Translations under genes and position numbers: made by a program
Assembly: GCA_030622545.1 (NCBI GenBank)
Contig: JAUXGA010000008.1
Location: 2,321 to 66,320, forward strand
Reading direction: 5' to 3'
From: a bacterium
GTDB taxonomy: Bacteria; Electryoneota; RPQS01; DYHQ01
Length of the DNA stretch: 64,000 nucleotides
Part shown: positions 2-12,415 of the stretch, one piece after another
Layout: each line of letters starts with the position of its first letter
Numbering within the stretch: position 1 is the stretch's first letter
The notes under the pieces: generated by a model
What the model was told of the DNA's origin: nothing
The model's database searches: none
Seen by the model: only the letters and a program-made list of their open reading frames with translations

Positions 2-625
2 TTGCGGCTTCAGGAGATGATTAGTGAGAACGGGATTCTCGTGGCCAAGAACATTGCAAACGAGGCTGCGTATGCACTGGAATTTCACTGCACATACGAT
101 CCTGGGAAGATTTGTCTGGAGAGCGCGAAACTTACGGAGGGCTTGGAAGATTGGCATTTGTTCACTCGGGCGGAAGACGGCGTGATTCACATCGGCGCGT
201 TTGGAACCACTCCGGTGGACGCTAATGCCGAGATCGTTCACCTGCACTTTCAGCCGAAGGGGCCCAATCGAACCGATACGCAGATTCTCGTGACTGACTA
301 TCGTGTGAATGAATTCCCGGCATCGTCCGCCGAAGTCTACTGGACAGTGACATCGACGCCGACGGAATACTCGCTGGAGCAGAATTATCCCAATCCATTT
401 AATACGACGACCAATATTCGATACAGTCTTCCGGAAAGAGCCAGCGTCCGCTTAGCTATCTACAATTCGTTGGGTCAACAGGCGGCTCTATTGGTGGATG
501 AGGTTCAGGAGGCCAACATCTATACGCTGGCCTTTGATGCGTCGCATCTCTCTTCCGGCATCTACTTCTTCCGTCTCGATGCCGGCAAATTCCACCAAAT
601 TCACAAGATGGTTCTCCTTAAGTAG
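2..625 (+). CDS. C-terminal part of a secreted protein with a T9SS-type C-terminal sorting domain (5' end lies outside the window)
   Basis: The ORF is open to the window edge. The C-terminus 'EQNYPNPFNTTTNIRYSL...SGIYFFRLDAG' is the typical Por/T9SS (FlgD-Ig-like) CTD signature. Confidence 0.6.
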   Translation: MRLQEMISENGILVAKNIANEAAYALEFHCTYDPGKICLESAKLTEGLEDWHLFTRAEDGVIHIGAFGTTPVDANAEIVHLHFQPKGPNRTDTQILVTDYRVNEFPASSAEVYWTVTSTPTEYSLEQNYPNPFNTTTNIRYSLPERASVRLAIYNSLGQQAALLVDEVQEANIYTLAFDASHLSSGIYFFRLDAGKFHQIHKMVLLK

Positions 626-725
626 GTATGACTCCGGATTCACCGGAGTAGACACCATTGCGAGATCTGCGCTGGCAAGTACGCAAAAGGTATTGGAAGA
701 TGAGATCAGACAAAAGGAGCCCATA

Positions 726-1493
726 ATGTTCGGCTATAAGTTATGGTCACTTATTATCGTGACGATCTGTACCCTCAATGCGCTCGCACAGATAACGGTA
801 ACACTTCCGGATACGACAGCAGATCAGGGGTATCAGTTGTGTATTCCGGTTCAAGTGGGCGATGTCACGGATCAAGACATCGTGGCGTTTGAGTTCACGG
901 TGACCTTTGATCCGACACTTCTCAATGCTGTGGATCCCTACTATGATGTGACCGGACGGTTGGCGGCGGATTGGACCATTTTCGAGACTCACAATAACAC
1001 GACCGGAACCCTGAACATCGGTGGATTCGGGACGACACCTTTGGAGGGTGAGGGACAGCTATTATGTCTTCAGTTCCAGGTTCTGCCCCAGGCTCCCGGT
1101 GGATCGGTTAGCCCTCTGACTTTCACAAGCTTTATGTTTAATGAAGGCACACCAGAGGCTGAAACCTCTGACGGCAGTCTCACCGTGGAGGGTTCTGGTG
1201 CCGATGACAGGAATGGATTTTCAGTTCCCAAGACATTCTGTCTATCACAGAATTACCCCAATCCCTTCAATCCGACAACTACAATCGAATTCGGCATCCC
1301 AAAAGCATCGCGAGTGTGCATCAGAATCTACGATATTTTGGGCAGGCAAGTGGATGTTCTTGTGGACGCCATGATTCAAGCTGGCCATCACCACGTGATC
1401 TGGGATTGTCCTGACTGCACGAGCGGCATATACCTTGTCGTGATGTCAGGAGATGGATTCAATATCGTTCGGAAGGCAACGCTGATAAGGTGA
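726..1493 (+). CDS. Secreted cohesin-like domain protein with T9SS-type C-terminal sorting domain
   Basis: The ATG at 726 gives the signal peptide 'MFGYKLWSLIIVTICTLNALAQ'. A cohesin-like segment follows ('ITVTLPDTTADQGYQLCIPVQVGDV...FEFTVTFDP'). The C-terminus is 'SQNYPNPFNPTTTIEFGIP...SGIYLVVM'. The ORF-track start at 498 is an unlikely upstream extension. Confidence 0.65.
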   Translation: MFGYKLWSLIIVTICTLNALAQITVTLPDTTADQGYQLCIPVQVGDVTDQDIVAFEFTVTFDPTLLNAVDPYYDVTGRLAADWTIFETHNNTTGTLNIGGFGTTPLEGEGQLLCLQFQVLPQAPGGSVSPLTFTSFMFNEGTPEAETSDGSLTVEGSGADDRNGFSVPKTFCLSQNYPNPFNPTTTIEFGIPKASRVCIRIYDILGRQVDVLVDAMIQAGHHHVIWDCPDCTSGIYLVVMSGDGFNIVRKATLIR

Positions 1494-2696: not shown

Positions 2697-2850
2697 AAAC
2701 TATACACATTATAGGGATTATTTCGGGGAAATGCTCGCATCGGGAAGATACTTTGTTCGTGCTGCGATTGCTGACAAAATCGAGAGCATGCCCATCCTGC
2801 TGCTGAAATAGCGGGGCATCAGAGTCCGAGTCCCTTTGACCCCGTTAAAT

Positions 2851-2890
2851 AGCCCTTGTTAAGTTCCATCTTGACAAGGGCTTTTTCTTT
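2851..2890 (+). terminator. Rho-independent terminator
   Basis: The stem 'agcccttgt' / 'acaagggct' (9 bp) is followed by 'ttttcttt'. Confidence 0.6.
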
Positions 2891-2933
2891 GGCTATATTG
2901 TGTTTGGGATTCTATCGAGAAGCTTGCTACATT

Positions 2934-2967
2934 GGAAGTTGCTGCTTCGAGTCCCGTCAGCCTCGCA
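2934..2967 (+). other. tRNA-Asp-like 3' fragment (fragment 2)
   Basis: The sequence 'ggaagttgctgcttcgagtcccgtcagcctcgca' shares 'TTCGAGTCCCGTC' with the E. coli tRNA-Asp T-arm as I recall it. The T-stem no longer pairs and no 5' half is present. Confidence 0.35.
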
Positions 2968-3038
2968 AATCCACAAACACTTGTCGGGCGTTGGCTTGGC
3001 AAGGGTGTAGACATTCGAGAATTTAGGAGGAATATTAG

Positions 3039-3893
3039 TTGGCTTCTCTTGATGAATCAAAGAAGTCCGTTAGGACTTTTCTCAATACATGTGACCATAA
3101 AGCGTCTGAAATTAAAGACACGCAAGAGCACCTTGTAAAACTTGCTGACTCCGTTAGTCAGGCAAAAGCGCATGGCACTATAGTGCTCCAAGGTTTAGAA
3201 ACAATGCCTGGAAATGTCGCTAAAGATATGAAAGAAGAAGATTGGAATGTGATTACTGTATCTTTCGATTTACAAAATGAGGCTCTGTCGTCGTTCGAAA
3301 TATCTGTTGCCCCGACGGATCTCACGGTTTTTAACAGTGGAACTTTAACAGCGAGCACCGCATCAACTAGTTCCTTTACTCAAGCCGTGTTGAAAAATCC
3401 TGAGCCTACTCGAGTTCAATGGCTGGGCACCATCGTGGCCGAGGAGAGAAACATCACAAATCGCAACGCACAAGCCGATGAGATAGAGTCTAAACTCCAA
3501 CTATTTCTCTCTGGCCGACATGAATATTTCCGTTTGGCGAAGGAGCGGCTCGACTTGTATGCCGTGGATAGTACAGATGCTTCTTCAGTTGCTATAGCCA
3601 TGAGAAACGTTCTCGACCAGCTGAAAGGTGATCTGAAAAGTAAGGCTCGAATGCAAGCAAGTGAGAATGTCAAATGGCCGGAGATAGCTAGCCGATTATC
3701 ATTAGGTGGTCCAGGTAGCCCTCATGAAACTGCATTGCTGAACCAGAAAGCAACTTTTGATGACCTTTATTCGATCCTCAGTAATTTAGCCAAAGCTACT
3801 CCGGCCGCCGGTCATACAGTCGAATCTGCCTATTTCATGTTTCTTGACTTCTTAGAGGCTCTCTTCGCAGTTCTCAATCCAGCAATTCTATAG
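3039..3893 (+). CDS. Hypothetical protein with no recognisable domain, probably co-transcribed with the TIR gene
   Basis: A TTG start lies 8 nt after a strong AGGAGG. The 284-aa ORF ends 37 nt before the next gene. Codon usage is AT-rich, like the TIR gene. Confidence 0.6.
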   Translation: MASLDESKKSVRTFLNTCDHKASEIKDTQEHLVKLADSVSQAKAHGTIVLQGLETMPGNVAKDMKEEDWNVITVSFDLQNEALSSFEISVAPTDLTVFNSGTLTASTASTSSFTQAVLKNPEPTRVQWLGTIVAEERNITNRNAQADEIESKLQLFLSGRHEYFRLAKERLDLYAVDSTDASSVAIAMRNVLDQLKGDLKSKARMQASENVKWPEIASRLSLGGPGSPHETALLNQKATFDDLYSILSNLAKATPAAGHTVESAYFMFLDFLEALFAVLNPAIL

Positions 3894-3930
3894 CCTATTT
3901 GATTTTTTTTCTATTTACCAAACTGTTTCA

Positions 3931-5397
3931 GTGACCATGACAGAATCAACAAATAACACAACACCGAAACCACGCGCCTTTATTTCCTACAGTTGGACAT
4001 CACCAGAACACATTAATAGAGTTGTTTCTCTCGCGGAGCGACTCGTTGGAGATGGGGTTGATGTTGTTCTTGACCAATGGGACCTTAAGGAAGGTCATGA
4101 CAAGATTGTTTTCATGGAGAAAATGGTCACTGACACAACAGTCAACAAGGTTATTGTGGTATCAGATAGGCGATACGCAGAAAAGGCGGACGGGCGAGAA
4201 GGTGGTGTTGGAACAGAATCCCAAATTATATCTAAGGAGGTGTATGAGAGGACAGAACAGGATAAGTTTATTCCACTTGTGTTTGAGTTTGATTCTAAAG
4301 GGCAGGCTTGTCTACCTACCTTCTTGAAATCAAGGATATACATCGATTTCTCTTCAGTCCAGCAGTCGGCAGATAACTACGAACGGCTCTTGCGAACCCT
4401 ATTCAATAAACCGGCTCAGCAAAAACCGAAATTAGGAAAACCACCTGCTTACCTATCTCAGGAAACAACAACCTTTTCTCCAAACAGATCATCTCTGGAT
4501 ATGTTCATCAGAGCACTACACGAGGATAAATCGAGTTATAAAGCCCTTGCGATAGAATATCTTGAAAGATTCCACAGTGGTCTTGAAGAATTCAAAATAG
4601 ATCTTCCGCCTAAAAAGCTCGAGGAGGAGTTTCTGCGGGTTTTTCATGATATGCTTCATGCGAGAAATGAACTCCTCGAGTTCTATAAAGAGGCTTTTTC
4701 CTTTAAAGATGACTATGATCTAATGGAAATCATAATTGAATTTCTTGAAAAAACTCTGAATTACAACTACAGGCCAATAGATGTCACCTCTTGGGATGAA
4801 ACTTGGTTTGAGAATTTCAAAATATTCAATTACGAATCATTTGTCTACCTTATCGCTATCTTGATCAAGTATAAGCGGTACTCGTTGATTGACAATTTAC
4901 TATCCCATGGTTATTATGTGGAAGCAGCAGCGCGAGACTATAACCATGCAATCCATCCATTTACCATATTTTGGTCTGATAGCGAGATTCTACGAATTCA
5001 AAACGAGCGATTGAAATCAAAGAAAATTTCACCGTTGGCTGAGCTTATAAAGAAGAGAGCTACTCTGTCATTTCTTTCATTTGATGAATTTATACAAGCT
5101 GATATCGTTCTCCTTCTGCGGAGTCTTTTAGATGATGACGATTACACAAAGTGGTACCCTCGCACGATGATATTCGCCGGTTGGTCAAGAGCTCTTCCAT
5201 TATTTGCACGAGCAGAGTCAGAAAAGGGATTCGCATCCATTTCGCAGATGCTCTCCAACATAAATCGGGCTGAACTAAAGCTCAAGATTGATAATGCGAC
5301 TAAAGGCGTCATGCGAGAAACCTTGGCGCGTCTAGGTTTCTATACTCGCATCAGTTTGCATGCACTCATAAACTACAAGAATATATTCAAAGAGTGA
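3931..5397 (+). CDS. TIR/SEFIR-like domain protein with an uncharacterised ~340-aa helical C-terminal domain
   Basis: The N-terminus 'AFISYSWTSPEHINRVVSLAERLVGDGVDVVLDQWDLKEGHDKIVFMEKMV...GGVGTESQII' matches the bacterial TIR_2/SEFIR pattern. The start is either GTG 3931 or ATG 3937. Confidence 0.8.
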   Translation: MTMTESTNNTTPKPRAFISYSWTSPEHINRVVSLAERLVGDGVDVVLDQWDLKEGHDKIVFMEKMVTDTTVNKVIVVSDRRYAEKADGREGGVGTESQIISKEVYERTEQDKFIPLVFEFDSKGQACLPTFLKSRIYIDFSSVQQSADNYERLLRTLFNKPAQQKPKLGKPPAYLSQETTTFSPNRSSLDMFIRALHEDKSSYKALAIEYLERFHSGLEEFKIDLPPKKLEEEFLRVFHDMLHARNELLEFYKEAFSFKDDYDLMEIIIEFLEKTLNYNYRPIDVTSWDETWFENFKIFNYESFVYLIAILIKYKRYSLIDNLLSHGYYVEAAARDYNHAIHPFTIFWSDSEILRIQNERLKSKKISPLAELIKKRATLSFLSFDEFIQADIVLLLRSLLDDDDYTKWYPRTMIFAGWSRALPLFARAESEKGFASISQMLSNINRAELKLKIDNATKGVMRETLARLGFYTRISLHALINYKNIFKE

Positions 5398-5454: not shown

Positions 5455-5528
5455 TGGCGGTGAGTTAAGCTTGTTAAAACGCCAGCCTGTCAGGTTGGAG
5501 GTCGCGGGTTCGAAATTCACACAGCCAG
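5455..5528 (+). pseudogene. Degenerate tRNA-Asp(GUC)-like sequence
   Basis: Acceptor TGGCGGT/ACAGCCA pairs 6 of 7. The anticodon arm is CCAGC-CTGTCAG-GTTGG (GTC). 'GGTCGCGGGTTCGA' is identical to E. coli tRNA-Asp as I recall it. The 3' T-stem (TTCAC) does not pair and the D arm is aberrant. Confidence 0.35.
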
Positions 5529-5539
5529 CAAATAGAAAA

Positions 5540-5567
5540 GCCTGTAAGCGTAACCTTGCAGGCTTTT
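5540..5567. terminator. Bidirectional rho-independent terminator between convergent genes
   Basis: The stem 'gcctgtaag' / 'cttgcaggc' is flanked by 'aaaa' on the left and 'tttt' on the right. Confidence 0.6.
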
Positions 5568-5602
5568 CGATTATAGCTCTACCGGATCTCGTCGCTACGG
5601 TG

Positions 5603-6328
5603 TCACCCCGACAACCCTTGGCGCCAATCCTTTTGCGTTTGAGCCTCATCACTCGTAGCCAAGTGATGGTGCCCATCTGAAAACACTCTGCCATCAACCA
5701 GACTCAATGTTCGCTTCGCCATCAGCGCCGCTTGCGGATCATGTGTCACCATGACGACGGTCCGGCCTTCCTTGTTAATCTCGTCGAGGAATGCGATAAC
5801 CTGCTGACTTGTTTCGGGATCAAGATTGCCGGTAGGTTCGTCTGCCAGAACGACGGGTGGATTATTCGCAAGCATACGGGCTAAAGCCACGCGTTGTTGT
5901 TGACCCACACTCAATTCAGACGGCTTATGATCCAGTCTATCGGAAAGTCCAACGCGTGCAAGGAGATCTGTCGCTCTTTGCTTTTGCGCACTCTCATCCT
6001 TGCCTGCGAGAAACAGCGGAATCTGGACATTCTCAGCAGCGGTCAGGTACGGCACAAGATTGAACGTTTGGAAGACAAACCCAATCTTTTTCCTTCGCAG
6101 CCGGGCACGTTTATCGGGAGAGAGATCATAGAGCGACTGTCCGTCGAGCAGAACCCGGCCTTTGGAAAGTGAAAGCATACCGCCGAGAGTCATGAGAAGC
6201 GTGCTCTTGCCGCTTCCACTCGGGCCGACGATGGAAATAAAATCACCCTTTGGAATATCCAATGTCACATCGTTGAGAGCCGTTATAATCTGTTGCCGGT
6301 GGTTATAAAACTTGCCGGCAGCTTCCAT
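5603..6328 (-). CDS. ABC transporter ATP-binding protein (MacB/LolD-type)
   Basis: Walker A 'GPSGSGKSTLL', signature 'LSVGQQQRVALAR' and Walker B 'VVLADEPTGNLD' are present. The likely start is ATG 6328 ('MEAAGKF'). The ORF-track start at 6442 overlaps the upstream permease gene. Confidence 0.85.
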   Translation of the reverse strand: MEAAGKFYNHRQQIITALNDVTLDIPKGDFISIVGPSGSGKSTLLMTLGGMLSLSKGRVLLDGQSLYDLSPDKRARLRRKKIGFVFQTFNLVPYLTAAENVQIPLFLAGKDESAQKQRATDLLARVGLSDRLDHKPSELSVGQQQRVALARMLANNPPVVLADEPTGNLDPETSQQVIAFLDEINKEGRTVVMVTHDPQAALMAKRTLSLVDGRVFSDGHHHLATSDEAQTQKDWRQGLSG

Positions 6329-6339
6329 TTTCAACACGA

Positions 6340-7560
6340 TCAAACCTCCTGAAGTGTGGTGAATGGATCGAGACGCGCCGCACGCCTCGCGGGTAAGTAA
6401 CTTGCCGCGAGAGTGAGCGCTACGGAGATGCCAATGGCCCACACCACAAGTTCCGGCATCGGCAGAACAGGCACTCCGGCAAGACGAGGGCCAAGAGTTA
6501 GGGCAAGCACCGTTCCTACAATATAGCCACCGATTCCAGCCGCAAGACCAAGCAGAAGCGCTTTGAACATGAATATTCGCAGTACCAGAGAGGAACCTGC
6601 TCCTAACGCCATCAAGGTACCGATCTCTCGCCGCCGCTCGAATACATTGGCATACATGTAGTTCGCGATACTCGCTCCCCCCACCAAAATAATGATCAGG
6701 AGAAAGGCTAACGATAGACGTGACATCATTTGGTTCATGCGGATCTGCGTATTTACTATCTGAGTGATGGTGACCACCTTCGCATCAGGGAGCAGACGGT
6801 TAATCTTCTGCACCAGCCCACCGGATATTTCGCTACAGCAACCCACAACTTCGATAGCGTTAATGACCGAACCCTTCCCGGTGAGTTCCTGAACCGTATG
6901 CAGGTGGGCAAAGATACGCGAGTCATCTACGGTTCCCGTCTGTGGAAGGACTGCGATAACATCGAACTTCTCTCCCAAGAGGTTAAGTTTATCGCCTTCT
7001 TTCGTTCCTAAGGAGGTTGCTGCATCGGCACCCACGAGAACTTCATTGCTGGCAAGCGTTTCGATCACTCGATTCCGCACCAAAGTCTCACGGGGCGAGG
7101 GAGGAGCCTCACCCGGAATGTCTACGACCACACCACACCCTTGCGGCCGCGAAAATATGCCGGCACCTGCCCATGCGGCCTTTGCCTGAAACTCATCCTT
7201 CGGCAATATCCCTGTTAGTGTAACATTTTGATTTCGAACCTTCACAGGAAGGGAGAGTTTCGGTGAAAGATTGTCCAATCCTTGAATGTCGGACATCACC
7301 AGCCGCATGACGTATTCCTCTGGGATCTCTTCCGCATTGAAGTCTGCAGTATAATAATCCTGTACGGAAGCGGACTTGGGAAGGATAAGAACATTTGCTC
7401 CCAAAGCATCCAGTTCTCTCATCACGGCTTTCTCGGAGTAAAAGGTGATGTTCTTTATAGAGACGATTACCGTGATTCCCAGGAGAATCGCTAGGAAGCC
7501 TGTCGTCAATTGATTCTTGCGTTCGAAGATTTCTCGCCAGACGAGCGTTCTGAGCCGCAT
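6340..7560 (-). CDS. ABC transporter permease, FtsX/MacB family
   Basis: The protein has an N-terminal TM helix, a large periplasmic domain and a C-terminal FtsX-like 3-TM region ('REIGTLMALGAG'). The start is 'MRLRTLVWREIF' at 7560. Confidence 0.8.
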   Translation of the reverse strand: MRLRTLVWREIFERKNQLTTGFLAILLGITVIVSIKNITFYSEKAVMRELDALGANVLILPKSASVQDYYTADFNAEEIPEEYVMRLVMSDIQGLDNLSPKLSLPVKVRNQNVTLTGILPKDEFQAKAAWAGAGIFSRPQGCGVVVDIPGEAPPSPRETLVRNRVIETLASNEVLVGADAATSLGTKEGDKLNLLGEKFDVIAVLPQTGTVDDSRIFAHLHTVQELTGKGSVINAIEVVGCCSEISGGLVQKINRLLPDAKVVTITQIVNTQIRMNQMMSRLSLAFLLIIILVGGASIANYMYANVFERRREIGTLMALGAGSSLVLRIFMFKALLLGLAAGIGGYIVGTVLALTLGPRLAGVPVLPMPELVVWAIGISVALTLAASYLPARRAARLDPFTTLQEV

Positions 7561-8637: not shown

Positions 8638-9048
8638 CTATCGTTGTTTCCCGCCGACTGTCTCAAAGTCCGAGACGATGCTTGCCTCTATATCATCTGC
8701 CGCCGGACATTGTTTCTTGCGATCTTTCAGAATCTCAACAATCCGTTCAGCGTCTTGGGCAACGCGCGGATCTGCGGCGTGAGCGTTCTGGACCCAGCGG
8801 ATGGCATCAAGCACAACCGGAGAGGCATCGGACCCAGCGAGGCGATAGTACACCCAACGGCCTTCCTTGCGACCGTCGATTAGACCCGCATCTCTAAGAA
8901 TTGATAGATGCTTGGAGACGGTAGACGGCGCAAGTCCTGAAAATTCGGTGATTTCACATACACAAAGCTCTCCCGAACGTAGAGCTAATAGCATCCGAAG
9001 ACGGTTCTCGTCCCCAAGAGCACTGGCTATTGATAGAAATTCGCGCAT
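8638..9048 (-). CDS. arsR: ArsR/SmtB family metalloregulator
   Basis: The sequence 'LGDENRLRMLLALRSGELCVCEITEFSGLAPSTVSKHLSILRDAGLI' contains a wHTH and the ELCVC metalloid-binding motif. Confidence 0.85.
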   Translation of the reverse strand: MREFLSIASALGDENRLRMLLALRSGELCVCEITEFSGLAPSTVSKHLSILRDAGLIDGRKEGRWVYYRLAGSDASPVVLDAIRWVQNAHAADPRVAQDAERIVEILKDRKKQCPAADDIEASIVSDFETVGGKQR

Positions 9049-9060
9049 TTCTTATTTCCT

Positions 9061-9082
9061 TATTTCGCCAAATGACGAAATA
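9061..9082. promoter_or_regulatory. Possible operator in front of the minus-strand arsR
   Basis: An inverted repeat TATTTCG-N8-CGAAATA lies 13 nt upstream of the arsR start. Confidence 0.3.
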
Positions 9083-9257
9083 TACGGAAACATTAGGACT
9101 TTGTCAAGAGAGAATCCCGTGGCATACATTTTTTTCGCATCTGTAACGCGGAACCCAGAGGACCAAAGACAGGATACTGAAGTCTTATCCGCTTCCCTAA
9201 TCCACCTGTTTATATTGCACTTACACTGAATCGGAAATCTGCGAAACTTTTACTTGC

Positions 9258-9281
9258 ATATAACCGTTTAAACGGTTATAT
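9258..9281. promoter_or_regulatory. Perfect 24-bp palindrome, probably an ArsR operator overlapping the promoter of the arsR-acr3 operon
   Basis: The palindrome ATATAACCGTTT|AAACGGTTATAT sits between a TTGCAT (-35-like) element and a TATATT (-10-like) element, about 30 nt upstream of the ATG at 9310. Confidence 0.6.
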
Positions 9282-9309
9282 TGATTGTTCAAACCCATGA
9301 GGATAAACA

Positions 9310-9702
9310 ATGCACAATCTTGCCTTATTATTCCGGGCGCTTGCCGATGAAACACGATTGCAGATGCTTGCGCTGATTTTGAAATACGGAGAACTTTGCG
9401 TCTGCGATTTTGAGCATGTTCTCGGCATTACCCAATCGAAAGCTTCCCGACACCTGCGTTATCTGCATAACGCGGGTTTTTTAGAGGATCGGCGCGAAGC
9501 CGTCTGGATACATTACCGCCACTCAGAGAAAATGGATGCTGACCATAAAATAATTCTCGACGCCGCGCATCAGGTTATTGGTGAGAAACGAATGCAAGAG
9601 CTTGAGAAGAAGCTATCGATTTGGCTGAAACAGAAGAGATGTGGCAACGTAAACGCGAAGAATTCTTTTAAAGAGAGAAGCAAGACAAGTGTGCATACAT
9701 GA
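9310..9702 (+). CDS. arsR: ArsR/SmtB family metalloregulator (second copy)
   Basis: The sequence '[48 protein letters not shown]' shows the family signature. The gene overlaps acr3 by 4 nt. Confidence 0.85.
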
Positions 9703-10763
9703 GTAGCCTTCATCAAAGTGTAGCACGCAGACTTTCTTTTTTTGATCGGTTTCTGACCTTGTGGATTTTTTCTGCTATGGTCGGAGGTGTGGGATTGGGA
9801 TTTCTTTTTCCTGGAATTGTTCCATTTCTCAACCGCTTCAGTGTAGGTACCACATCCATTCCGATTGCGGTGGGTCTTATTCTGATGATGTACCCGCCGC
9901 TGGCCAAGGTGCGCTACGAAGAACTCGGCGAGGTTTTTCGTAACTGGAAAATCCTCGGATTATCACTGATTCAAAACTGGATGCTGGGGCCGATTCTCAT
10001 GTTCTTCCTCGCGCTGATTTTCCTGCACGACTATCCGGAATACATGGTTGGCTTAATTCTGATCGGTCTTGCGCGTTGCATCGCGATGGTGATCGTGTGG
10101 AATGAGCTTGCCGACGGAGACACTGAATACGCGGCGGGGCTGGTCGCTTTCAATTCGATTTTCCAAGTCCTGTTTTATTCGGTTTACGCCTTTGTGTTTA
10201 TCACAATGTTACCCCCTTTGTTTGGCCTTAAAGGAGTGGCGGTTCATATCACCATCGGTCAGATCGCACAGAGCGTTTTCATCTATCTGGGGATTCCGTT
10301 TATCGCAGGATTTCTCACACGGTTTGTGCTGATTCGTTTAAAAGACGAAACATGGTACCATGAGAAATTTATTCCAAAGATCAGCCCGATAACTCTGCTC
10401 GCTCTGCTCTTTACCATTGTGGTGATGTTTTCACTAAAGGGTGATAAAATCTTAACGTTGCCTCTGGATGTGGTGCGTATCGCTGTGCCGCTTCTGATAT
10501 ATTTCGTAGTCATGTTCTTTATATCGTTCCTGATGGGAAAGAAAGTGGGTGCGGATTATCCCAAAACGACTACACTGTTTTTCACTGCTGCATCAAACAA
10601 TTTTGAGTTGGCTATTGCCGTGGCCATTGCAGTTTTCGGAGTGCACTCGAAGGTGGCTTTTGCGGCGGTTATCGGCCCTCTGGTGGAAGTCCCTGTATTG
10701 ATCAGCCTGGTCAATGTAGCCTTGTGGTTGCGGAAAAAATACTTCAATTCTACAACGCCATGA
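9699..10763 (+). CDS. acr3: Arsenite efflux transporter, ACR3 family
   Basis: The segments '[13 protein letters not shown]...[23 protein letters not shown]...[19 protein letters not shown]' are characteristic of Acr3. Confidence 0.9.
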
Positions 10764-10847
10764 ATGGTCGCTCTTTAGCTGAAAAAAGATGTATCAGAAT
10801 GAGGTGTGGGCTATTTATATAATTGCGGTAAGGTGCGCGGAAAAAGT

Positions 10848-12146
10848 ATGAACTGGAAACAAGAATGGAAACCACTGGCATTAATCACAGCCCTATTTCT
10901 TGGCTGTTTCTATTTGCCTGCGGATTCCCTGCGTTTGCCTCCCGTCTTCCTTGAAGCGCTGCATCTGGTGAAATGGTACGCGCGAGAACATGTGCTGCTG
11001 TGCCTCATTCCCGCATTCTTCATTGCCGGGGCGATTTCTGTCTTTATCAGCCAGGCGTCGGTGATGAAATATCTCGGCGCCAAAGCAAACAAGGTACTTG
11101 CTTATGGTGTCGCATCAATATCCGGGACGATTTTAGCCGTTTGTTCGTGCACTGTCCTTCCTCTTTTCGCAGGCATCTACCGAATGGGAGCCGGGCTGGG
11201 ACCGGCAACAGCTTTCCTCTATGCTGGTCCGGCGATAAATGTCCTCGCCATCATTCTGACGATGCGTGTTTTGGGATTCGAACTCGGAATCGCACGCATG
11301 GTCGGAGCGGTAATCTTCAGCATCATCATCGGACTGTTGATGCAGCTTATCTTTCGCAAAGAAGAAATAGACAAGGCGAATGCTCAAGCGGCGATGCCCA
11401 CACCGGAAGTTGCGCGGCCGCTTTGGCAGAATGCTCTCTGGTTTGCTTCAATGGTGGGAATTCTTATCTTTGCTAACTGGGGCAAACCTGATGAAACCGT
11501 CGGCTTCTGGCATGCTGTTTACACTGCGAAATGGTTTATCACCGGAGGCTTCGCCGTGGGGTTTGCGGTGATGCTTTTCAGTTGGTTTGACCTTAAATGG
11601 TCGCATGTCATTCTGGCGAGTCTTCCTGCGATAGTTTTAGCGCTGGCCTTTCCAGCGAACCCGCTGCTAAGCTTTACAGCCGCTGTCATCGGATTGTCTG
11701 TCATCACCAGCATTCACAAGGGCGAGTCCGGAGAATGGTTCAGTTCGACATGGGGATTCACCAAGCAAATCCTTCCGCTATTGCTCATCGGCGTTCTTGC
11801 GGCGGGCTTGTTTTTAGGACGTCCGGGGCATGAAGGTCTGCTTCCGTCCAAATGGATAAGCGCGGCGGTCGGCGGCAACTCGCTCCTTGCCAATTTCTTC
11901 GCATCGGTCATTGGAGCATTCATGTATTTCGCCACGCTCACCGAAGTACCCATCCTGCAGGGTTTGCTGGGAAGCGGGATGGGAAAAGGACCTGCGTTGG
12001 CGCTGCTGTTGGCCGGGCCTGCTCTCAGTTTGCCGAATATGCTCGTCATCCGCAGTGTGATGGGAACGAAGAAAACAGCGGTGTTTGTGGCGCTTGTTGT
12101 TGTGATGGCGACGATGACGGGCATGATATACGGATTCCTTTTTTAA
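10848..12146 (+). CDS. Permease of the UPF0718/ArsP-like family
   Basis: This is a polytopic membrane protein with a 'CSCTVLPLFAG' motif. It is followed by the small redox-active thioredoxin-like gene typical of this family. ATG 10848 is preferred over GTG 10806. Confidence 0.7.
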   Translation: MNWKQEWKPLALITALFLGCFYLPADSLRLPPVFLEALHLVKWYAREHVLLCLIPAFFIAGAISVFISQASVMKYLGAKANKVLAYGVASISGTILAVCSCTVLPLFAGIYRMGAGLGPATAFLYAGPAINVLAIILTMRVLGFELGIARMVGAVIFSIIIGLLMQLIFRKEEIDKANAQAAMPTPEVARPLWQNALWFASMVGILIFANWGKPDETVGFWHAVYTAKWFITGGFAVGFAVMLFSWFDLKWSHVILASLPAIVLALAFPANPLLSFTAAVIGLSVITSIHKGESGEWFSSTWGFTKQILPLLLIGVLAAGLFLGRPGHEGLLPSKWISAAVGGNSLLANFFASVIGAFMYFATLTEVPILQGLLGSGMGKGPALALLLAGPALSLPNMLVIRSVMGTKKTAVFVALVVVMATMTGMIYGFLF

Positions 12147-12160
12147 CTTGGAGAATACCC

Positions 12161-12394
12161 ATGAAAACAATTAAAATTCTGGGCACGGGCTGCCCGAAAT
12201 GCAACAAGCTCGCAAAAAATGCGGAAGCCGCTGTCCATGAACTCGGCTTGGACTGCGAAATCGAAAAAGTCACGGATATCAACGTAATTATGGCTCACGG
12301 CGTGATAATGACTCCGGCGCTTGTGATTGAGGACGAAGTTAAAGTTGTGGGCAAAGTTGCAACGACGGATGAAATCAAAAAGCTGATAGCATAA
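12161..12394 (+). CDS. Small thioredoxin-family redox-active disulfide protein (TM0996/MTH895 type)
   Basis: The 77-aa product begins 'MKTIKILGTGCPKCNKL...'. The gene is embedded in a longer spurious ORF in the track. Confidence 0.8.
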   Translation: MKTIKILGTGCPKCNKLAKNAEAAVHELGLDCEIEKVTDINVIMAHGVIMTPALVIEDEVKVVGKVATTDEIKKLIA

Positions 12395-12415
12395 TTACTC
12401 AGGAGCAGGAACAAC

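Follow-up and report, generated by a model that had tools for sequence, protein, structure and literature searches.

A probable divergent member of the bSEFIR anti-phage family beside an unrelated gene in an uncultured Electryoneota bacterium

Layout and signals of the locus

Two adjacent genes, here called pA and pB, were analysed within a 64,000-nucleotide (nt) stretch of DNA (the window; positions 2,321 to 66,320 of the forward strand of contig JAUXGA010000008.1, assembly GCA_030622545.1) from an uncultured bacterium assigned to the Electryoneota. An initial annotation had proposed that they form a new two-gene defence system built around a TIR domain and fitting no described system. We find instead that pB, which encodes a protein of 488 amino acids (aa), is with a probability of roughly 85% a divergent representative of the known bSEFIR system, in which a single gene defends against phage, and that pA, a gene of 284 codons, is its unrelated neighbour. 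The features of the locus are listed below in window coordinates, with the AT-rich region around the two genes called the islet and with L001 denoting the contig (SRR30965928) of the sole close homolog of pA.

2851-2890 (+): intrinsic-terminator-like hairpin with U-tract, the end of the upstream unit and the left islet boundary (fold scan and shuffles; block kept in L001)
2871-2899 (+): sigma-70-like promoter candidate (consensus match; sequence kept in L001, the sole close relative)
3025-3030 (+): AGGAGG ribosome-binding site of pA (read directly; block from this site to the start codon identical in L001)
3039-3893 (+): pA, 284-aa gene of an unannotated family (open reading frame, 80%-identical homolog, 152 remote relatives)
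3931-5397 (+): pB, 488-aa probable bSEFIR protein (PADLOC bSEFIR, E = 7e-103)
3973-4410 (+): SEFIR (TIR-superfamily) effector domain, aa 15-160 (Pfam, 5Y8E profile and fold match)
4477-5394 (+): C-terminal all-helical domain, aa ~183-488 (PADLOC profile coverage, conserved columns, AlphaFold2)
5455-5528 (+): degenerate tRNA-like sequence at the right islet edge (Rfam RF00005)
5535-5568 (+): terminator-like hairpin, then UUUUCGAUU, right boundary (fold energy, inverted repeat I3)

The pA reading frame opens with a TTG codon, 8 nt upstream of which the AGGAGG ends, and pB follows on the same strand after a spacing of 37 nt. The pB frame was read from a GTG codon, and the database gene call begins at the ATG at 3937 and gives 486 aa. 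Both reading frames, the gap between them and the AGGAGG-TTG start are present as first described. The pB start region (3931-3939), with GTG 3931 and ATG 3937 as candidate starts, holds no recognisable Shine-Dalgarno sequence, and the T-rich spacer may have a role in the initiation of pB translation.

Strong hairpins stand on both sides of the pair, in agreement with the bounding terminators that had been placed at 2851-2890 and 5540-5567. The left hairpin (2851-2882, followed by a U-tract) has a 13-bp stem and a folding free energy of -21.2 kcal/mol (z = -5.7; 0 of 200 shuffled sequences were as stable), and the right one (5535-5568), which coincides with inverted repeat I3, reaches -21.3 kcal/mol (z = -5.3). 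The sequence between pA and pB is unstructured (-1.6 kcal/mol, z = +0.8), and a scan of this gap returned neither hairpins nor plus-strand promoter-like sites. Upstream of pA, the promoter candidate TTGACA-17-TATATT (2871-2899) matches the sigma-70-like consensus at 11 of 12 positions, is embedded in the left hairpin, in its 3' arm and tail, and is likely to be the promoter of both genes. Because the gap contains no terminator or promoter-like site, pA and pB are probably co-transcribed. The G+C contents of pA (0.447) and pB (0.408) lie below that of the window (0.507) and of the flanking genes (0.48-0.53), which bears out the AT-richness that had been noted for both.

pB and the bSEFIR family

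The bSEFIR system, which appears in the literature as 'SEFIR', is a single-protein anti-phage system that depletes nicotinamide adenine dinucleotide (NAD+) (Millman 2022; Osterman 2024). A lone SEFIR protein under its native promoter protected B. subtilis from phage phi29, and the D40A substitution abolished protection (10.1101/2022.05.11.491447); the validated protein is that of Bacillus sp. NIO-1130, and D40 is an Asp needed for SEFIR-SEFIR interaction. Homologs were reported from 460 genomes in more than 20 phyla, and members were selected in that preprint by an N-terminal SEFIR match stronger than the TIR match (10.1101/2022.05.11.491447).

The PADLOC bSEFIR model PDLC03957 aligned to the pB protein almost from end to end (E = 7e-103, 343.6 bits; aa 5-472 on profile positions 37-371 of 412). 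In Pfam, the SEFIR family PF08357 (aa 15-137, 65.5 bits, E = 8.3e-18) scored above TIR_2, PF13676 (50.3 bits, E = 4.2e-13), the two matches together spanning aa 15-154, so that the SEFIR match is both N-terminal and the stronger of the two, as in the selection rule of the Millman preprint. The TIR/SEFIR-type domain recognised at the N-terminus in the initial annotation is therefore present, and the sequence motifs cited for it there are genuine. More than 2,227 relatives of pB were found; of the best 120 listed, most are full-length proteins (~480 aa) with identities of 37-53%, and all 120 carry both the SEFIR and the TIR_2 domain. The closest, among the matches listed, is 52-53% identical to pB. 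Relatives occur in 558 species genomes (one genome per species scanned) from many bacterial phyla as well as archaea, and the relative at loci L095/96 adjoins a restriction-modification system, an integrase and ParAB.

An alignment of 31 sequences showed F17, S19, Y20, D48, the run G92-V-G-T-E96 and Q98 to be invariant in the N-terminal domain, and E273, E302, W408 and F425 to be invariant in the C-terminal part. D48 (codon 4072-4074) lies in the motif LDQWDL and E96 (codon 4216-4218) in GGVGTE, and both D48 and GGVGTE are conserved in the B. cereus SEFIR crystal structure 5Y8E, which the alignment profile matched at E = 3e-49 over residues 8-161. The AlphaFold2 model of pB has a mean predicted local distance difference test (pLDDT) score of 85.4, with most of the C-terminal domain at 80-98. 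When this model was searched with Foldseek, 5Y8E and 5Y8F were the top matches (template modelling (TM) score 0.85-0.87, probability 1.00), followed by the SEFIR domains of IL-17R and Act1, the TIR domain of MyD88 and the TIR domain of SPARTA. The C-terminal all-helical domain had no significant fold match in the PDB by Foldseek. It had been described as a domain in which nothing could be recognised; judged by the reach of the PADLOC profile (aa 5-472) and by its conserved columns, it is the bSEFIR family's own conserved domain.

The catalytic glutamate proposed for the TIR-type domain fared less simply. E96 is invariant in the 31 relatives and follows beta-C/alpha-C in the AlphaFold2 model, as does the catalytic residue of TIR NADases, and its equivalence to that residue was drawn from this topology alone. 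A residue-level alignment of the two was not achieved, as the matches to AbTIR PDB profiles cover beta-A to beta-B.

Compared with known systems, pB resembles bSEFIR in the following: an N-terminal SEFIR domain joined to a conserved C-terminal helical domain of ~300 aa in a protein of ~480 aa, a whole-length match to the family model with SEFIR scoring above TIR, an invariant Asp in the LDxW motif, an invariant Glu in GGVGTE and no conserved partner gene. It differs in being at most 52-53% identical to known sequences (among the matches listed), in coming from an uncultured bacterium that apparently bears a type IX secretion system (T9SS) rather than from Bacillus, and in sitting behind an unrelated 284-aa gene, probably on one transcript. 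The crystallised BcSEFIR (5Y8E/5Y8F; Yang et al. 2018) is 39-40% identical to pB over ~150 aa, superimposes at the TM scores given above and shares GGVGTE; those crystals hold the SEFIR domain only, and the C-terminal domain has no solved structure. We file pB as bSEFIR because it agrees with the named system in all testable features of sequence and structure, and the claim of novelty falls with this match to a published single-protein system.

Systems that use TIR domains in other contexts are more distant. Thoeris (the TIR protein ThsB with ThsA), SPARTA (TIR-APAZ with a short Argonaute) and the TIR-effector forms of CBASS and Pycsar share with pB a TIR-superfamily fold and NAD+ chemistry, whereas SEFIR has been assigned an outgroup position relative to the TIR clades. 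The Thoeris models for ThsA and ThsB matched neither pA nor pB at E ≤ 1, and the flanking genes are unrelated to them. With respect to SPARTA, CBASS and Pycsar, the only matches were weak and partial ones in the TIR domain (Aga_TIR, 1e-4; SAVED_TIR, 7e-3), the SPARTA and MyD88 TIR domains aligned weakly to the pB model, and no Argonaute or cyclase was found among the flanking genes, nor any SIR2/SLOG gene near the pair. The absence of these usual partners had been remarked on before, and it stands. Eukaryotic SEFIR proteins (IL-17 receptors, Act1/TRAF3IP2) belong to the same domain family (Foldseek match to 9OT1, IL-17RA/RB/ACT1, E = 5e-4) but are signalling scaffolds, not known NADases, with unrelated domain architectures. 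Taken as a whole, the TIR interpretation of this locus holds in so far as pB contains a TIR-superfamily (SEFIR) domain whose Glu is invariant and comes from a family that consumes NAD in defence against phage; it does not hold in calling the system new, two-gene or undescribed.

Phage defence and NAD+ depletion are read onto pB from the literature on other family members, by analogy with which a mode of action can be proposed. The C-terminal domain, presumed to be phage-sensing or regulatory, would detect infection and would let the N-terminal SEFIR domains associate, with D48 possibly equivalent to the Asp at the interface that defence is known to require. The SEFIR domain would then hydrolyse NAD+ to ADP-ribose and nicotinamide, with E96 of GGVGTE as the predicted catalytic residue, and the loss of NAD+ would halt phage replication. 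SEFIR is among the domains reported to yield these two products (2026 preprint, 10.64898/2026.09.04.749371). D48, invariant in the 31 relatives, is thus the putative counterpart of the published D40. A similar layout is found in DSR1/DSR2 and other single-protein NADases, in which, as presumed for bSEFIR, infection is recognised by a large C-terminal domain joined to an N-terminal NAD+-hydrolysing effector in one polypeptide; DSR1/DSR2 and bSEFIR are both countered by the phage NARP1 pathway. Unlike pB, DSR1/DSR2 use a SIR2 effector fold, are much larger proteins and have no sequence relationship to it.

The pA family and its relation to pB

Whether pA belongs with pB was judged from the genomic contexts of both families. 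Eighty bSEFIR loci, each taken with 6 kb of flanking sequence, were searched with pA by tblastn, which gave chance-level matches only (E ≥ 0.6), and with a pA-family profile hidden Markov model (HMM) built from 61 members, which gave no match at E ≤ 1. The two closest bSEFIR relatives have no adjoining pA-family gene; upstream of the 52%-identical one lies a UvrD-like helicase fragment, and the 48%-identical one has a restriction-modification system, an integrase and ParAB as neighbours. In the reverse direction, the bSEFIR profile found no bSEFIR in the 28 other pA-family loci. The nearest upstream and downstream reading frames differ in length, orientation and spacing from one of the 80 bSEFIR loci to the next, and bSEFIR has no conserved partner of any kind, since 143 neighbouring proteins split into 138 clusters. 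A two-gene system was therefore rejected, with zero co-occurrence in 80 + 3 bSEFIR loci and 28 other pA-family loci; the pairing is specific to this window, because no other pA-family member adjoins a bSEFIR, and pA is not part of the bSEFIR system. A match to an already named system and a lack of co-conservation of the two genes, both now found, had been listed in the initial annotation as outcomes that would overturn its proposal. A relationship of pA to the bSEFIR C-terminal domain was also considered and rejected, as hhalign detected no relation between the two families (probability 0.2%).

The pA gene itself has a single close homolog, on L001, with 80% aa and 86% nt identity and a frame intact over 284 codons. 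The ratio of nonsynonymous to synonymous substitution rates (dN/dS) between the two is 0.33 and third-position changes are in excess, a substitution pattern by which pA is a real gene under purifying selection. It is not a pure orphan: a word-indexed search gave one homolog, while a complete HMMER run against 1.84 billion representative sequences gave 152 relatives at E ≤ 1e-3 (11 of them at E ≤ 1e-10), which form 152 clusters at 50% identity and are mostly 265-290 aa long, collinear and ~22-40% identical. The family is ~275 aa in length and mostly helical, with the conserved core 'MRNxLxHxKGxL...W..MA.RL', in the first part of which R189 and G197 are invariant (alignment A4). No member rose above noise against Pfam, PADLOC, PHROGs or NCBIfam, and pA had no match among PDB sequences or plasmid and phage collections. 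An AlphaFold2 model built on a 2-sequence alignment was unreliable (pLDDT 51.6).

Contexts of the pA family were compared at 29 distinct loci, gathered with the help of a scan of metagenome contigs by a 12-sequence sub-alignment. They are a small and non-random sample, and several do not extend far enough to reveal a neighbour. PADLOC-recognised defence genes are present at nine of these 29 loci. One is the present window with its bSEFIR. At L084, the pA-family gene is convergent with a ThsB/PDC-S66-like TIR gene, and a serine recombinase and a Rep protein are encoded close to them; at L086, SoFic lies immediately upstream; and at L089, a CAP12-type TIR, Hypoth_Ymh and RelB/ParE are close by. 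L091, on a conjugative element, has a Ppl-like ATPase 15 nt downstream, and L101 has PDC-M30A/B together with a Type III restriction enzyme near the gene. At L104, a 1,316-aa DrmMI/Type IIG-like methylase-endonuclease ends 4 nt upstream, L107 has a Type IIG fragment, and at L102 reading frames similar to the L104 enzyme (fragments, weak match) lie on either side of the gene. This Type IIG/DrmMI-like enzyme is the only recurrent neighbour, at four of the 29 loci, and a universal partner for pA was not found. Genes for integrases, recombinases and conjugation, as well as group II introns, occur near the family's loci, and many loci show unannotated small neighbours only.

Two of these loci hold further genes. 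At L104 (693-9891), and also at L105, four same-strand genes encoding proteins of 435, 277, 377 and 380 aa follow the pA-family gene; the 435-aa and 277-aa proteins have no family match, and the latter recurs at L083. Such an arrangement may be an undescribed multi-gene restriction-modification or DISARM-like system. At L083 (6001-8301), the neighbours of a pA-family gene and of a 470-aa protein that matches nothing in Pfam or PADLOC are RadC genes and the reverse transcriptase of a group II intron.

These contexts suggest a defence-island gene family. With them, a tentative case can be made for pA as an independent, unnamed defence or defence-accessory gene, in an islet that would then hold two separate defence modules, a reading compatible with pB as bSEFIR. 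The breadth of the family (152 representative clusters of collinear ~275-aa proteins), the defence genes at nine loci, the mobile-element genes around them and the purifying selection on pA all speak for it. Against this, the locus sample is small, non-random and lacks a background rate, many loci have unannotated neighbours alone, pA has no recognisable enzymatic or sensor domain and a poor model, and a role as mobile-element cargo, regulator or anti-defence gene is equally possible. With the same reserve, the family as a whole can be pictured as a defence-island component that is widespread in metagenomes and either works alone against phage or serves as an accessory or sensor module docking beside interchangeable effectors. 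If the docking form were true, the effectors would be bSEFIR here and the Ppl-like ATPase, the Type IIG/DrmMI-like enzyme and TIR proteins elsewhere, and pA would modulate the bSEFIR NADase.

Several observations weigh against the placement of pB as a lone bSEFIR defence protein. The window does not have the make-up of a classical defence island, since methyltransferase and ABC transporter genes and genes for arsenic resistance flank the pair. E96 is equated with the TIR catalytic Glu by topology only, the AbTIR alignments stopping at beta-B, and the pB model is of low confidence at residues 90-97, which include this residue. The protein is known from its sequence, its nearest relative among the matches listed is only 52-53% identical, and its defence role would be one read from its family. 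Finally, the 37-nt spacing, the gap without terminator or promoter and the start of pB without an obvious ribosome-binding site leave room for a coupling with pA.

This last point is the basis of a second alternative, in which the pair is a lineage-specific two-gene variant in which pA would sense infection, regulate the bSEFIR NADase or restrain it in the manner of an antitoxin. The two genes are on the same strand with no hairpin or promoter between them and one conserved promoter upstream, and close same-strand spacing recurs elsewhere in the pA family: 15 nt before the Ppl-like ATPase at L091, 4 nt after the Type IIG/DrmMI-like enzyme at L104, and 58 nt before the 470-aa protein without family match at L083. 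The neighbours of pA differ, however, in type, strand and side; no pA-family gene occurs at any of the 80 bSEFIR loci or beside either of the two closest relatives, and no bSEFIR occurs at the 28 other pA-family loci. The published bSEFIR works alone, and the pairing is seen nowhere else, as the contig of the sole close pA homolog ends 21 nt past the gene. We consider this variant improbable. Least credible of all is a general protein-protein interaction or signalling role for pB with no part in immunity, the view before 2022, which a citing paper attributes to Yang et al. 2018 for bacterial SEFIR domains and with which a window that is not a defence island would agree, but which conflicts with family members that defend against phage and deplete NAD+, with close relatives beside restriction-modification systems and integrases, and with the invariance of the putative catalytic Glu.

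Islet borders, flanks and significance

Scars of tRNA genes had been proposed on both sides of the pair, and one of the two was recovered. ARAGORN made no tRNA call in the whole window. The Rfam model RF00005 detected a degenerate tRNA at 5455-5528 (+) with 32.7 bits (gathering score 29; E = 4e-4); its anticodon loop reads GUC, its T-arm is disrupted and the strong right hairpin follows. On the left, the proposed scar (~2935-2968) consists of a T-loop-like motif only, with no Rfam tRNA at E ≤ 10. The anticodon and T-stem region of the right remnant resembles a tRNA-like sequence upstream of the pA homolog on L001 (223-294, anticodon GCC, mismatched acceptor stem), which is followed directly by the L001 counterpart of the left hairpin block. 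A clean integration site was ruled out, with no attachment-site-like direct repeats bracketing the pair, no integrase and a left scar invisible to Rfam. The pA-pB region is probably a small, horizontally acquired AT-rich islet beside a decayed tRNA.

The hairpin and promoter form a block of ~70 nt that is near-identical in the two contigs (window 2845-2915; L001 296-365) amid differing surroundings, and to judge from this comparison it behaves like a portable unit travelling with pA. In the pA leaders (window 2906-2955; L001 356-433), a GGGAUUC pairs with the T-loop-like GAGUCCC in the window and GAAUCCC in L001, across inserts unlike in length and sequence; the fold z-scores are not significant, with two sequences available, and the pairing may simply be a remnant of a tRNA fragment.

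The flanks of the pair hold an S-adenosylmethionine-dependent methyltransferase (2112-2696), a MacB-like ABC (ATP-binding cassette) transporter (5603-6442) and an arsenic-resistance-type cluster (8638-12400). This cluster comprises ArsR-family regulators at 8638-9048 (-) and 9310-9702 (+), an ACR3/SBF-family transporter (9699-10763) and an ArsP-type permease (10806-12146), and a short thioredoxin-like reading frame with a CxxC motif (~12170-12394), judged from its translation, may join it. At the start of the window, the genes at 2-625 and 498-1493 (+) encode secreted proteins that end in the T9SS sorting domain Por_Secre_tail, and one of the two also has a cohesin domain. These proteins point to a host in the Bacteroidota/FCB-like groups or in a related candidate phylum. 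Just 3' of the T9SS-tailed cohesin gene (498-1493) lies a run of 10-nt units at 1600-1664 (GCTATCACTT / GCCTTCACTT / GCTTCCACAT / GCATTCACTT ...), where only short minus-strand reading frames occur.

The main value of this analysis lies in the correct filing of pB, as a divergent bSEFIR member and not a new TIR system. The C-terminal domain of bSEFIR, the presumed phage sensor, has no solved structure, and in the confident model obtained for pB (pLDDT 85) it showed no significant fold match in the PDB. The pA family, which recurs beside diverse known defence genes, may have a link to defence of its own.

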